Shown one piece after another: positions 629-5,040 of a DNA stretch of 64,000 nucleotides. The translations under genes and the position numbers were made by a program. The notes below the pieces were generated by a model. It was not told where the DNA came from. It saw nothing but the letters and a program-made list of their open reading frames with translations, and searched no databases. The stretch's first letter is position 1; the number at the start of each line of letters is the position of its first letter. Origin of the DNA: a virus; the IMG/VR virus record IMGVR_UViG_3300021964_000024, positions 32,001 through 96,000 of that record, one strand, 5' to 3'.

Positions 629-1213
629 ATGTCAGACATCTTTAACAGATTAAGTATTCAAGCGTTTCGTTCGGGGATTACTCCACGTACCGAAGAATCA
701 CGTAAGTGGTTCTTGAAGAAAGCGCAGAATATGAGAAGCATCAATCGTGAAGCGTTGATGCAAGAAGATCCTCTCAAGTCGAGATCTAAACAGATCGTTG
801 GCGGGATGTTCATGTTCGGATATGATCCCAAACACAAAGACACACTACCATACTATGATGTGTTTCCGTTAGTGATAGTACTTGGCCCGGCAGAGGGAGG
901 ATTCTTAGGATTGAATCTACATTACCTACCTCCAAAGTTGCGTCTTTTATTCTTCTCTAACTTGATGGATATTCAGGGTAGTAAGTTGAGTGAAAATGAT
1001 AAGTTCAGTTTGACTTATCGTACACTAAAGAAAGCGTCAAACTTGAGATACTTTAAACCGTGTATTAAGCACTATTTGAATGCTCAAGTAACAAGTAAGT
1101 TCGCAGAAGTACTTGCACCAGAGTGGGAGATTGCAGTGTTCTTACCAACCGCACAGTTCCGTAAACGTTCTAGTGCAAAAGTATTCTCAGATAGTAGGCA
1201 GATGATAGGATGA
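629..1213 (+). CDS. gp2: DNA end protector protein (T4 gp2-like)
   Basis: YDPKHKDTLPYYDxFPL...GFLGLNLHYLPP motif; late-gene context. Confidence 0.85.
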   Translation: MSDIFNRLSIQAFRSGITPRTEESRKWFLKKAQNMRSINREALMQEDPLKSRSKQIVGGMFMFGYDPKHKDTLPYYDVFPLVIVLGPAEGGFLGLNLHYLPPKLRLLFFSNLMDIQGSKLSENDKFSLTYRTLKKASNLRYFKPCIKHYLNAQVTSKFAEVLAPEWEIAVFLPTAQFRKRSSAKVFSDSRQMIG

Positions 1214-1941
1214 GTTTTAGTATAGAGACACTGAAGGCACAGATTACTCAGTCGGGTGGTCTTGCAATGAAGAATCAGTTCATGGTAGAACTACCACAAC
1301 TTGAGTCGTTCCCTATGGACATTCGTGAACTGGATGTCATGTGTCTGACTACATCATTGCCTGGCAGACAGGTAATGTCGCAAGAAGTTACCGTGGGTAC
1401 GACACAAAGAAAAATTGCAAATGGTTTTGCAACCACAGATATGCAGATGACTTTCTTAGTTGCAAATAACCACATGATACGTCAATACTTCGAAGCATGG
1501 CAAAACGAAGCACATAACCAAACAGAGAAAACTGTAGGGTACTTCGAAGATTATACATATGACGTGAAGATACATACAATAGAAAGAGGACTGAGACTTG
1601 CCTTGTTTAAAAAACAACTGGGTTTCATGGACAACGTACCTAGTGTTATCAAGAATAGACTTCCTGATCTAGGGCCGATTGATCTTTCTCAGGGTGAGAT
1701 AGACTTAGGTGCATCTTTCCCTATGAAACAAACATACACGTGTACACTATTTGAGTGTTACCCGACTTCGTTACAAGAACAAGCGTTGAGTAGTTCGGAT
1801 GAAGGATACATGGAACTCACCGTCCAACTCTCTTACACTGATTTTGAAAGTAAAGCAGGTGAATTTACTAGTGAAGGTGAATCTTTTGGTCGAGGCGTTG
1901 CTGGCGCTGTAGGCGGTTTGATTGGCAGAGCACTTGGTTAA
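1210..1941 (+). CDS. tail tube-like / baseplate tail tube initiator (gp54-like)
   Basis: GGLA..NQF, SLPGR, FEAWQ, LFECYP..L pattern of the gp19/gp54 family; lies between gp2 and gp26. Confidence 0.7.
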   Translation: MSFSIETLKAQITQSGGLAMKNQFMVELPQLESFPMDIRELDVMCLTTSLPGRQVMSQEVTVGTTQRKIANGFATTDMQMTFLVANNHMIRQYFEAWQNEAHNQTEKTVGYFEDYTYDVKIHTIERGLRLALFKKQLGFMDNVPSVIKNRLPDLGPIDLSQGEIDLGASFPMKQTYTCTLFECYPTSLQEQALSSSDEGYMELTVQLSYTDFESKAGEFTSEGESFGRGVAGAVGGLIGRALG

Positions 1942-1972
1942 ATTTAATTATTAATATATTGGAGAACACATT

Positions 1973-2680
1973 ATGGCATTACCCAAGTTAAACGAGTCCC
2001 CGAATTACAGTACGACAATTCCGTCTACGGGGCAAAAGGTGACGTTCCGTCCATACCTAGTCAAAGAAGAAAAGGTATTGATGATTGCGTTTGAGACAGG
2101 AGATCAGAACCAATCGCTTCAGGCGATTTGTGATACACTAGAAGCGTGTATCTCTGAGGAAATTGATGTAAAGAATCTTTGCACATTTGACATTGAGTAT
2201 CTGTTCACACAGATTCGATCTAAGTCAGTGGGTGAGACAGCAACCATCACTCTTCCTTGTTCTGAATGCGACAAGAGAACAGAGGTTGGTGTTTCATTAC
2301 AGGATATCAATATCGATGTGGGTGACGTTGAAAACACAATTCAGTTGACCGACAGTATTAGTATTCAGATGAAATACCCTTCGTATGCACAGGTTCTCAG
2401 TCTAGATCTCGCTAATGCGAACGACACTGAAGTAGGATTCAACATGATTGCAAAGTGTATCTCTGCAATTTTGACTGAAGAGGAAAGGATTGATACCAAA
2501 GATGTCAAGGAAGATGAAGTCATGTCATTCATCGAACAGATGACTGCGGATCAGTTCAAGAATGTGACACAGTTCTTGCAGGACATTCCAACGTTGAACC
2601 AAGACGTTGAATATATCTGTAACAGTTGTGGTCATGAAAACAAAACCAGACTTAAAGGGATTAACGATTTTTTATCATAA
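1973..2680 (+). CDS. gp26: baseplate hub assembly protein (gp26-like)
   Basis: MALPKL..P.Y...IPSTG..V.FRPYLVKEEK, FDIEYLF.QIRSKSVGE, two CxxC pairs. Confidence 0.9.
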   Translation: MALPKLNESPNYSTTIPSTGQKVTFRPYLVKEEKVLMIAFETGDQNQSLQAICDTLEACISEEIDVKNLCTFDIEYLFTQIRSKSVGETATITLPCSECDKRTEVGVSLQDINIDVGDVENTIQLTDSISIQMKYPSYAQVLSLDLANANDTEVGFNMIAKCISAILTEEERIDTKDVKEDEVMSFIEQMTADQFKNVTQFLQDIPTLNQDVEYICNSCGHENKTRLKGINDFLS

Positions 2681-2871
2681 ACCTTTCTCACGATAATTTG
2701 GTCAATTACTATAAGACCAATTTTTCGTTGATGCAACACCACAATTATAGTTTGGCAGACATTGAAACAATGATGCCGTGGGAAAGGGAGATTTATGTCG
2801 CTATGTTAGTTGACTGGGTGAAGGAAGAGAATGATCGTATAAAACAAGAACAGATGAAACACGGACATTAA
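2668..2871 (+). CDS. gp51: gp51-like baseplate hub assembly frame, probably expressed as a -1 frameshift extension of gp26 (absent from ORF track)
   Basis: Manual translation FFIINLSHDNLVNYYKTNFSLMQHHNYSLADIETMMPWEREIYVAMLVDWVKEENDRIKQEQMKHGH*; first ATG only at 2731, inside the conserved region. Confidence 0.8.
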   Translation, partial: FFIINLSHDNLVNYYKTNFSLMQHHNYSLADIETMMPWEREIYVAMLVDWVKEENDRIKQEQMKHGH

Positions 2872-2874
2872 GAA

Positions 2875-5040
2875 ATGGCAGATAACGAAAAGTTACTTCA
2901 GGCAATAGATGCGTTAAGGTTTGAGAATGCTCAGTACCATGACGAAAACTATCTGAAGCAAGGTAAGCAAGTAGCTAACTCAGAGGTTACCGTCAAACTT
3001 ATGGCGGAACTTGTTGATGAGTTTCGTCAGGGCAGAGCTGACGATAAACTTGATGCCGAAGAACGAAGACGTGACGCTGCAAAAGATCAAGGATCTGGAG
3101 GGCCAAAACCACCCGAAAGAAGTAATCGAGATGACACTGACGTTGATTTCGGACTCAGTGGAATCCTTGCTACTGTTGCAGGAATTGGTGCCGCAGTTGC
3201 AGGATTTGCAGTAGGTCTAGTTCAGGGTGTTTCAAATATCTTCAAACTTGCCACTGCAGCTTTCCGTACACGTCTTACCGCCATCTTTGCACCAGTGACT
3301 AGATTCGTCGATGCAATTACAGATGTATTTGGTAAACGTGGTTCGTCACAATTCCTCAAAGGAAACACCTACAAAACTCTAGGGAATCTGACCAAGTACT
3401 TCCGTGGTTTCGCAGATATCATCAAAAGCGTTGAGACTCGTTTCGCTAGAATAGGTACTCAGATCACACAGTTCAGTAGAACTGTTCGTTCGTATGCAGG
3501 AATGCTTACAAACGTTGTTAAGGATTTTGGTAAATTAAAACTCAATCAAATCGGGGCGGCGTTCTCCAGATTCACACAAGGTATTGTAAACTTCCAGAGA
3601 TCTGTTGTTAAATATATGACGTTCGGTGAGAACAGAGCGCTAACCGGACTCTTAGAAAAGATAACCAAACCAGTCAAGAATTTCATAAACGGTTTACGTG
3701 GTGTTGGTGAAAGCACCAGTAAAATTGCTAAGACCATGAAATCTTTCTTTGGTGCGTTCAAAGTGATTGGACGATTCGTTGCATTCCCTCTTACTGTAGT
3801 AATGGGTTTGATCGATTCCTTCAAGGGCGCAAGAGACAATATGGAAGGCAGAGTTGGTGCATTCGATAAAATTCTTTCTGGTGCAATCGGTGCAATCGCA
3901 GGACTTATTAAAGGTCTTATTCTAGTACCGATTGATCTACTCAAATCTGGTATCTCTTGGGTCGCCAAAAAACTAGGGTTTGAGAACTTTGCTAACTTAC
4001 TTGACTCGTTCAGTTTCGCAGACTCCTTTATGGAATTCACTTCACGATTGACAGATGGGTTCATATACACTTTCAGAAATGCCATTGACAGTATTATGAA
4101 ACCTTTCGAAGATGGTGTAGACTTGGGTTCTATTTTTGAGTTTGTGGTCACCCTACCCTATAAGATAGTAACTAGTCTTCTTGATTTAACTAAGTCTGCT
4201 GTCGGTTCATTGTTAGGTTTGTTTGGTGCAACAGATGCAGAAGAAGCACTAGGATCATTTAGTTTCACAGACATGTTTGATAGTCTGATCCAGTTCGTAA
4301 AGGAACTACCGACCAGATTGGCAAATGCATTGTTAAGTTTCTTCGAAGATCCAATAGGTGCCATCAAAGACGGTCTTCAGATTGCGGGTAACTTTGCAAG
4401 TATGGCAGGGGCAAAAATTAAAAGTCTATTAGTAGGTCTGTTACCAGACCCAGATAGTCTTGTAGCAAATCTAGTACCGGACGCTCTTTATGAATGGGCA
4501 AATGAACCACCACCTGCTCCACCTGAACCTGTAGTTGCAGACGTACCTGCTACTGAGACACAAAATCCAATATCCAGATCAGAAGAACCACAAGAAATTC
4601 GTGGGGTAGATGAAGATGGTTTTGAATACATCGAACGTAGAAGACCCGCTTCTATGGATAGACCCGCCAGTACTGCGATTGCAGGTACTAGGGATATTTA
4701 CGGTGAAGAGTTTATTGATCCGGTAACAGGAGAGTCAAGAAGACAGAAGGTCTTTGAAGCGGATCCAATGATTGCCGCAAAACTGCAGAAGGACAATGAT
4801 GAGTTCTTTGCAGAGATGGATCGACTTGAGGCGGCAAAAAACACTAGGGGTCAAGACTTAGATCAGATGTCTAGAACGAATGCTCAGTCAGCTTCTTCAG
4901 GAATGAATGTTGTGGTGAGTGCACCAAATCAGACAAGTACGACTACAAACAATTCAAATACTGCAGCCATAATAGACCAAAACCTGCCAACCGTAGATAC
5001 GAATGACAGGTCTTGGGGTTTAGGTGGATCTTTCGGTTAA
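2875..5040 (+). CDS. tail tape measure / baseplate hub protein (gp29-like)
   Basis: 721 aa, Gly/Ala/Phe-rich amphipathic helical sequence; follows gp26/gp51. Confidence 0.7.
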   Translation: MADNEKLLQAIDALRFENAQYHDENYLKQGKQVANSEVTVKLMAELVDEFRQGRADDKLDAEERRRDAAKDQGSGGPKPPERSNRDDTDVDFGLSGILATVAGIGAAVAGFAVGLVQGVSNIFKLATAAFRTRLTAIFAPVTRFVDAITDVFGKRGSSQFLKGNTYKTLGNLTKYFRGFADIIKSVETRFARIGTQITQFSRTVRSYAGMLTNVVKDFGKLKLNQIGAAFSRFTQGIVNFQRSVVKYMTFGENRALTGLLEKITKPVKNFINGLRGVGESTSKIAKTMKSFFGAFKVIGRFVAFPLTVVMGLIDSFKGARDNMEGRVGAFDKILSGAIGAIAGLIKGLILVPIDLLKSGISWVAKKLGFENFANLLDSFSFADSFMEFTSRLTDGFIYTFRNAIDSIMKPFEDGVDLGSIFEFVVTLPYKIVTSLLDLTKSAVGSLLGLFGATDAEEALGSFSFTDMFDSLIQFVKELPTRLANALLSFFEDPIGAIKDGLQIAGNFASMAGAKIKSLLVGLLPDPDSLVANLVPDALYEWANEPPPAPPEPVVADVPATETQNPISRSEEPQEIRGVDEDGFEYIERRRPASMDRPASTAIAGTRDIYGEEFIDPVTGESRRQKVFEADPMIAAKLQKDNDEFFAEMDRLEAAKNTRGQDLDQMSRTNAQSASSGMNVVVSAPNQTSTTTNNSNTAAIIDQNLPTVDTNDRSWGLGGSFG

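Follow-up and report, generated by a model that had tools for sequence, protein, structure and literature searches.

A probable -1 frameshift at the end of gene 26 in an uncultured T4-like phage, and its relation to T4 gp51

We analysed a stretch of phage DNA of 64,000 nucleotides (nt), hereafter the window, which comprises bases 32001-96000 of a 105.8-kb IMG/VR virus record (IMGVR_UViG_3300021964_000024, ~62% complete). The source is an uncultured T4-like phage that occurs in marine, estuarine and freshwater metagenomes. The element in question is the 3′ end of its gene 26, where an in-phase slippery heptamer, T_TTT_TTA, leads into a -1 reading frame encoding a sequence like the C-terminal part of gp51. 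We hold it to be very likely that a long protein, gp26-51C, is made from this gene, by whichever form of slippage, and we consider it probable that a ribosomal -1 frameshift at the heptamer yields this form of 299 amino acids (aa) besides a form of 235 aa.

The slip site and the two reading frames

The features on which the argument turns are as follows.

1973..2680, + strand: gp26, the short 0-frame chaperone form, 235 aa (PF12322 T4_baseplate, phrog_150)
2668..2674, + strand: slippery heptamer T_TTT_TTA in the X_XXY_YYZ phase (direct reading and conservation)
2674..2871, + strand: -1 frame extension of 65 codons plus stop, corresponding to the gp51 C-terminal module (phrog_634, phrog_150, alignment with T4 gp51)
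1973..2871, + strand: conceptual long form gp26-51C, 299 aa, in which 1973-2674 is joined to 2674-2871 and base 2674 is read twice

The 0-frame product belongs clearly to the T4_baseplate family PF12322 (196.5 bits against a cut-off of 24.5, residues 10-234) and to phrog_150 (E 3.8e-60). Its gene ends with ATT AAC GAT TTT TTA TCA TAA, the stop being at 2678-2680, so that a single sense codon (TCA) lies between the heptamer and the stop. In the -1 frame, stops at 2653-2655 and 2662-2664 are followed by an open stretch from 2665 up to the TAA at 2869-2871, which encodes IINLSHDNLVNYYKTNFSLMQHH...MPWEREIY. The peptide matches phrog_634, the 'baseplate hub assembly catalyst' (gp51), at E 3e-29, and it also matches the gp26 profile phrog_150 at positions 231-276 of 282, that is, over the last 46 positions. 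A protein database's precomputed annotation places Pfam PF28602 on the extension (window 2674-2868); our local copy of Pfam, which lacks PF28602, gave no family match to the extension.

The initial annotation of this stretch, made from the letters alone, had described much of this arrangement. It had read a canonical in-phase heptamer T-TTT-TTA at 2668-2674, which direct reading confirms. It had also set the heptamer two codons before the stop; the position is right and only the counting differs, given the one intervening sense codon. Its description of a gp51-like -1 frame open to 2871 agrees with the list of open reading frames (ORFs) and with the phrog_634 match, and the next gene does begin right after the -1 stop, with an ATG at 2875 behind a stop that ends at 2871. 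The candidate starts in the -1 frame are, again as described, TTG 2698 and ATG 2731, and no GGAGG-like or Shine-Dalgarno-like motif precedes either of them.

Independent initiation of gp51, which the initial annotation had named as a finding that would speak against a frameshift, is not borne out by the relatives. The first ATG, GTG or TTG of the -1 frame usually stands 10-21 codons into the conserved block, and in 25 of 39 representatives the first ATG, which encodes the Met of LMQHH, falls at codon 20-21. An alignment of the extension places its invariant residues L4, S5, H6 and L9 upstream of the usual first start codon, and the mean column identity is 70% for the extension as against 59% for gp26. 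In most lineages, the -1 ORF has no independent start.

The run of six T residues (T6) is not significant in itself, because such runs number 90 in the window against 82 expected from shuffled sequences. The significance of the site therefore rests entirely on its comparative conservation.

Conservation of the site and the relation to T4 gp26 and gp51

An in-phase T6 followed by a -1 ORF was found in 247 of 250 assessable relatives, made up of 93 of 96 loci and of all 154 assessable loci in a second set of 160 IMG/VR loci. Conservation of the heptamer and of the -1 phase, the check that had been proposed with the initial annotation, thus holds. The relatives include cyanophages, vibriophages and phages of Aeromonas, Rhizobium and Stenotrophomonas, and the loci with the site span Kyanoviridae, Emmerichvirinae, Schizotequatrovirus, Nanhuvirus, Pootjesviridae, Menderavirus and a Rhizobium phage. 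Among IMG/VR relatives of gp26 (43-98% identity), 80 of 80 have T_TTT_TTN in phase, zero or one codon 5′ of the stop, with a gp51-like -1 ORF after it. The cyanophages ACG-2014e, S-CAM22, P-SSM2 and S-WAM1 all carry T_TTT_TTC in phase, one codon 5′ of the gp26 stop, and the heptamer and the -1 ORF are likewise present in C48C1, Vibrio vB_VmeM-32, Stenotrophomonas Bhz51, Cronobacter LPCS28, Rhizobium P10VF, Vibrio VH7D and Aeromonas phage 65. They are present in Rhizobium RHph_I1_18 as well, here nine codons 5′ of the stop. The similarity of the window to cyanophages at the DNA level is limited to the junction and the -1 ORF. The exceptions to the site are confined to one clade, consisting of Aeromonas TSW001 and Vibrio D531, and to the T4 subfamily, in which gp26 is followed by gp25.

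The conservation extends to bases that the 0-frame protein does not constrain. Among 41 sequences with less than 80% amino-acid identity, we examined the two synonymous sites of the heptamer, which are the third positions of the first Phe codon and of the codon before it; T was found there in 82 of 82 cases. In the remainder of gp26, the T-ending synonym accounts for 63-78% of the choices, and under independence, with shared ancestry ignored, 82 of 82 would be expected with a probability of ~1e-13. The YYZ codon of the same sequences is variable (TTA in 16, TTC in 13, TTT in 10 and TTG in two) and encodes Leu or Phe, so the bases of the heptamer are better conserved than the residue. In gp26 of T4 and of a Gelderlandvirus, the E-F-F motif is kept and is spelt TTC TTT. 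Of 137 distinct junctions, 118 have a run of exactly T6, nine have T7 and 10 have T8, and 30 of the 39 representatives also have exactly T6; this is the minimum for the heptamer and is short for slippage by RNA polymerase.

How does this arrangement relate to the two separate proteins of T4? We built conceptual -1 products for the window and for eight diverse phages and aligned them with the T4 and Gelderlandvirus proteins. The slip junctions of all nine phages fall in one alignment column, which gp51 of T4 and of the Gelderlandvirus traverses with no gap; the end of T4 gp26 lies three residues past that column. A T4-type gp51 (250 aa, a single ORF) matches PF12322 over residues 1-200 (E 7e-58) and covers positions 13-281 of the 282 of phrog_150. 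Judged by these alignments, T4 gp51 is a gp26 paralogue plus the extension, and the long and short forms of the window are the predicted equivalents of gp51 and gp26, respectively. T4 gp26 (208 aa) and gp51 (249 aa) resemble the two forms of the window in that both belong to PF12322 and the long one is collinear through the junction. T4, however, has two divergently transcribed paralogous genes without a slip site, whereas in the window a single gene has to supply both forms; the 105.8-kb record holds only one PF12322 gene. In a maximum-likelihood tree, T4-subfamily gp26 and the N-terminal part of gp51 are sister paralogues with 97/96 support, in a tree in which gp51 lies on a long branch and only a midpoint root is available. 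This topology fits a scenario in which a duplication would have replaced the slip in the T4-subfamily lineage.

A Gelderlandvirus gp51 (locus L093, 1664-2416, minus strand) has an in-frame GAT TTT TTA, read as E-D-F-L, just 5′ of where the slip junction falls in the alignment. It could be the remnant of a slip site in an ancestor, or a coincidence; T4 gp51 has no such T run near the junction position.

Both T4 gp26 and gp51 have been described as hub assembly chaperones, with gp51 absent from the particle (PMC3004832). Sullivan et al. (2010; PMC3037559) noted without explanation that the 'gp51' of cyanophages and marine vibriophage is only ~20% of the length of T4 gp51. The cyanophage 'gp51' seems to want its first ~200 residues because the equivalent of T4 gp51 is the long form, that is, gp26 plus the extension.

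Not one of 16 inspected phage records, T4 included, has a joined coding sequence. The small ORF is given differing starts in GenBank and RefSeq records, with products of 26-58 aa, and it is unannotated in five of them (ACG-2014e, S-WAM1, vB_VmeM-32, LPCS28 and VH7D). In P-SSM2, an ATG lies 5 nt 3′ of the stop.

Two further arrangements were observed. In Aeromonas TSW001 (L090:3253-3453) and Vibrio D531 (L091:3190-3390), which group together in the tree with 98/96 support, the heptamer is absent and CTT TTC stands in its place; the gp51C-like ORF of D531 appears to be self-starting through a TAATG overlap, and that of TSW001 seems to start at an ATG after a GC-rich hairpin. To judge from these sequences, the clade appears to supply the extension in a third manner, namely as a peptide on its own, 54-58 aa long. 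In addition, rare single-ORF proteins of 301-302 aa (P0001, P0003 and P0008, with P0012 and P0013) contain both PF12322 and the gp51C module. In P0001 and P0003 the junction is D-F-F-(V/R)-I-A-L-S-H, as one extra T would give, and the closest IMG/VR relatives of these long forms all carry the frameshift arrangement. P0001, P0003 and P0008 may be genomic variants, homopolymer errors or cDNA.

How the long form may be made

The mechanism that we propose would have gene 26, as a tail or hub assembly chaperone gene, yield two proteins from one mRNA. Most ribosomes would terminate at the TAA at 2678-2680 and produce the short form of 235 aa, and a minority would slip by -1 on U_UUU_UUA (2668-2674) and continue to 2871, producing the form of 299 aa with its extension of 65 residues. 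By analogy with gpG and gpGT of lambda, the part shared by both forms would form a coat on the tape-measure-like protein whose gene follows, the extension would tie that complex to a tube-fold or hub protein during hub and tail initiation, and neither form would be kept in the virion. We infer that the slip is ribosomal rather than transcriptional, and the ratio of short to long form and the binding partners are proposed on the same footing.

Two sequence elements near the heptamer are candidates for stimulators of such a slip.

2654..2659, + strand: AAAGGG, a purine run of Shine-Dalgarno type, 8 nt 5′ of the heptamer (RRGG motif in relatives)
2691..2727, + strand: AU-rich hairpin CGATAATTTGGTC ... 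GACCAATTTTTCG found in the clade of the window, 16 nt 3′ of the heptamer

An RRGG motif occupies the position of AAAGGG in nearly all relatives, which makes AAAGGG a possible upstream stimulator. A stimulatory role is inseparable from a coding role here, because the motif also encodes a conserved Lys/Glu-Gly, which is kept by T4 gp26 although that gene has no slip site. The hairpin at 2691-2727 has a minimum free energy of -12 kcal/mol (z -2.9). RNAalifold gives it 11 pairs, of which three show compensatory changes, and the share of paired cells is 94%, as against 29-58% with slid partners. Several cyanophages have stronger hairpins nearer the slip site. Downstream structure is strong in the clade of the window and in some cyanophages, and it is absent where the stop directly follows the heptamer.

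The principal competitor of a ribosomal slip is transcriptional slippage, in which RNA polymerase adds one U on T6 in some transcripts and so gives a nearly identical long form with the junction D-F-F-I-I-N. We judge this explanation unlikely. Efficient slippage by bacterial RNA polymerase usually needs runs of about 8-9 or more, as in the A9 of Thermus dnaX and in insertion sequence (IS) elements, and the run of the window is shorter, being T6 as in the 118 junctions mentioned above. Selection for a slipping polymerase would, moreover, favour longer runs and leave the phase unconstrained, and the hairpins of the window clade and of several cyanophages would serve no purpose. On the other hand, the site is a pure homopolymer, ~14% of the distinct junctions have T7 or T8, no downstream stimulator is universal, and the single-ORF long forms P0001 and P0003, of unchecked origin, read as insertions of one T. 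The title of a study on T4-like phages by Vladimirov et al. (2022), to which we return below, may likewise hint at a non-translational mechanism. Contigs from metatranscriptomes of salt marsh and marine samples (three studies) match window 1900-3300 at no less than 99%, which places the phage or a very close relative in the RNA libraries, with carry-over of DNA being possible. These RNA-library contigs cross the run without an insertion or deletion, so that T6 is the majority sequence in the libraries. This is a weak argument against polymerase slippage, as contigs hide minority variants, strand and level.

That the -1 ORF is instead a separate gp51 gene of 46-57 aa, translated from TTG 2698 or ATG 2731 or by ribosomes that reinitiate past the gp26 stop, we regard as quite improbable. 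A short separate coding sequence is indeed annotated in many GenBank and RefSeq records, P-SSM2 has its ATG 5 nt past the stop, and the homologous ORF of D531 and TSW001 has its own ATG and no heptamer. Such translation would, however, leave outside the product the invariant residues, which in most lineages precede every candidate start, it would begin at 2698 or 2731 behind no Shine-Dalgarno-like motif, and the annotated starts vary widely (26-58 aa), with five of the inspected records annotating none. It also leaves unexplained the invariant in-phase T6 and the constant -1 relation in 247 loci, and T4 gp51 shows the extension functioning at the C-terminal end of a gp26-like protein. The idea that the T run is a homopolymer error or a coincidence, and that the true gene is a single in-frame ORF, can draw on the commonness of T6 runs in the window and on P0001, P0003 and P0008, which are such single ORFs. 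We consider its probability negligible, in that the arrangement recurs in 247 independent assemblies and in finished isolate genomes obtained with several sequencing technologies, and T6 is reproduced in metatranscriptome and metagenome contigs of many studies.

Several points nevertheless weigh against a ribosomal frameshift or against its reading as a lambda-like chaperone pair. No protein, ribosome-profiling or reporter data were found for this phage or any relative, and the title cited above, which may concern the two genes of T4 alone or the poly-T sites as well, may speak for a different mechanism. The probability for the synonymous sites takes no account of shared ancestry. There is no universal downstream stimulatory structure (mean z -1.6 over 38 diverse sequences), and the hairpin of the window clade, at 16 nt past the heptamer, lies beyond the usual spacing of 5-9 nt, which leaves its role uncertain. 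According to a review (PMC5009743), both U_UUU_UUA and U_UUU_UUU shift far less readily in E. coli than A_AAA_AAG. The clade of TSW001 and D531, without the heptamer and with what seems to be its own start, implies that fusion is not obligatory everywhere, and the structural Z-scores reported below, all under 8, may reflect a common arrangement, homology being unproven.

A ribosomal frameshift still appears to us the best account of the site. We can also imagine, as a doubtful but possible refinement, an unusual signal in which a weakly slippery U_UUU_UUA, lacking a stimulator at the canonical distance, would be aided by the nearby stop, by AAAGGG or by the covarying hairpin, or in which slippage by the polymerase would contribute in part. 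If this were true, the T4-like phages would constitute a natural series in which one problem, that of the chaperone ratio, has been given three solutions: recoding, a gene pair and a free small protein.

Chaperone fold, neighbouring genes and significance

The arrangement described here is that of the G/GT-type tail chaperones. Two ORFs overlap, the second of which is in the -1 frame and has no start of its own; an in-phase X_XXY_YYZ heptamer conserved among relatives lies inside the overlap; and the tube-like gene, the chaperone gene and the tape-measure-like gene follow one another in this order on the + strand. The local genes are listed below.

629-1213, + strand: gp2-like DNA end protector, first in the local gene order
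1210..1941, + strand: tail-tube-fold protein, 243 aa, directly 5′ of the chaperone gene (phrog_45 'tail tube', E 6.8e-33)
2875..5040, + strand: tape-measure-like protein, 721 aa, gp29 analogue (PHROG matches and position directly after the chaperone gene)

The product of 1210..1941 also has a weak match to PF23849, and the gene syntenic with it is labelled 'tail tube' in phage C48C1 and 'gp54' in Aeromonas phage 65. It is probably a tube or tube-initiator protein of the gp54/gp19 type. A search of the phage's own record with PF06841 (gp19) gave no match, and it gave none in the control genomes either, which renders it uninformative. A complex prediction between the tube-like protein and the -1 extension scored 0.00, which is evidence neither way. 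The product of 2875-5040 matches four PHROG tape-measure families weakly (E 1.4e-5 to 1.8e-3) and has no Pfam, NCBIfam or PDB sequence match, the PDB matches being at chance level; these data point only weakly to a tape-measure identity.

The predicted structure of gp26 (AF2 model, mean pLDDT 86) offers a further comparison. When the N-terminal domain (residues 1 to ~95) was compared with 48,161 chains by VIA-align, the top three matches were 3fgx (Z 7.9), 3klu (Z 7.1) and 2ob9 (Z 7.0), with 84-86 aligned residues each; the next unrelated match had a Z of 4.8. Of these, 2ob9 is the HK97 tail assembly chaperone (gp10) and 3klu is YqbN of a B. subtilis prophage; we take 3klu and 3fgx to belong to the same chaperone fold group. 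A Foldseek search of the gp26 model against the PDB gave nothing at E <= 0.001 (2ob9: E 0.98, probability 0.44), a sequence search of solved structures with gp26 returned chance-level matches only, and NCBIfam gave nothing useful. The model is suggestive of an HK97-type tail assembly chaperone fold in the N-terminal domain.

We also observed two CxxC pairs in gp26 (Cys96 and Cys99, Cys216 and Cys219; window 2258-2269 and 2618-2629), which are invariant in 28 relatives; Rhizobium phage RHph_I1_18 is without the second pair. In the AF2 model the cysteines sit on paired beta-hairpins, which align weakly (Z 3.0-3.5) with zinc ribbons such as those of LysW, ZitP and NrdR, so that in the model this four-cysteine part resembles a zinc ribbon. 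To our knowledge, no such part occurs in the lambda-type chaperones.

A likeness to gpG and gpGT of lambda (Xu, Hendrix and Duda 2004; PMC5009743) is seen in the fold, in that the N-terminal domain of gp26 resembles the HK97 chaperone. There is, however, no detectable sequence similarity between lambda G and gp26, which is larger (235 aa) and has the additional zinc-ribbon-like part, and the heptamer is U_UUU_UUN in the family of the window as against G_GGA_AAG in lambda. The slip site of HIV-1 gag-pol, U_UUU_UUA, is identical to that of the window, and its product is described in PMC5009743 as heterogeneous, with Leu or Phe at the junction; HIV-1 differs in its use of a eukaryotic ribosome, in a well-placed downstream stem-loop and in the unrelated nature of its genes. 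The initial annotation had taken gp26 and gp26-51 to be the G/GT equivalents of this lineage, and the collinearity with gp51, the fold of the N-terminal domain and the gene order support that view.

The phenomenon itself appears not to be new. Our search of the literature on gp26, gp51 and frameshifting returned no direct match, and the earlier work surfaced only through the paper on PRFect (PMC10885494). As cited there, Vladimirov et al. (2022) found that some T4-like phages carry a short gene and a long fusion gene, and as cited in a paper of 2025 (PMC12846349), the same study described poly-T slippery sequences in 'TAC-N' genes of T4-like phages. From these secondary citations, it appears that gp26 and gp51 were already published as chaperones of T4-like phages in 2022, and the window appears to be a further case of the kind described.

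The present value of the observation therefore lies in annotation. The slip is not annotated in the record of the present phage, which is uncultured, marine and T4-like, and elsewhere the small ORF has either been assigned an arbitrary start or been overlooked. A model of the slip in gp26 ought to be built into gene callers and into pipelines for phage annotation. The arrangement also explains the oddity of the short cyanophage and vibriophage 'gp51'. The -1 frameshift of tail chaperones in long-tailed phages has been reviewed with the T4-like phages as a stated exception (PMC5009743). With gp26 and its extension read as described here, the T4-like phages would no longer be that exception, an insight that, as far as the citing papers indicate, was apparently published in 2022.

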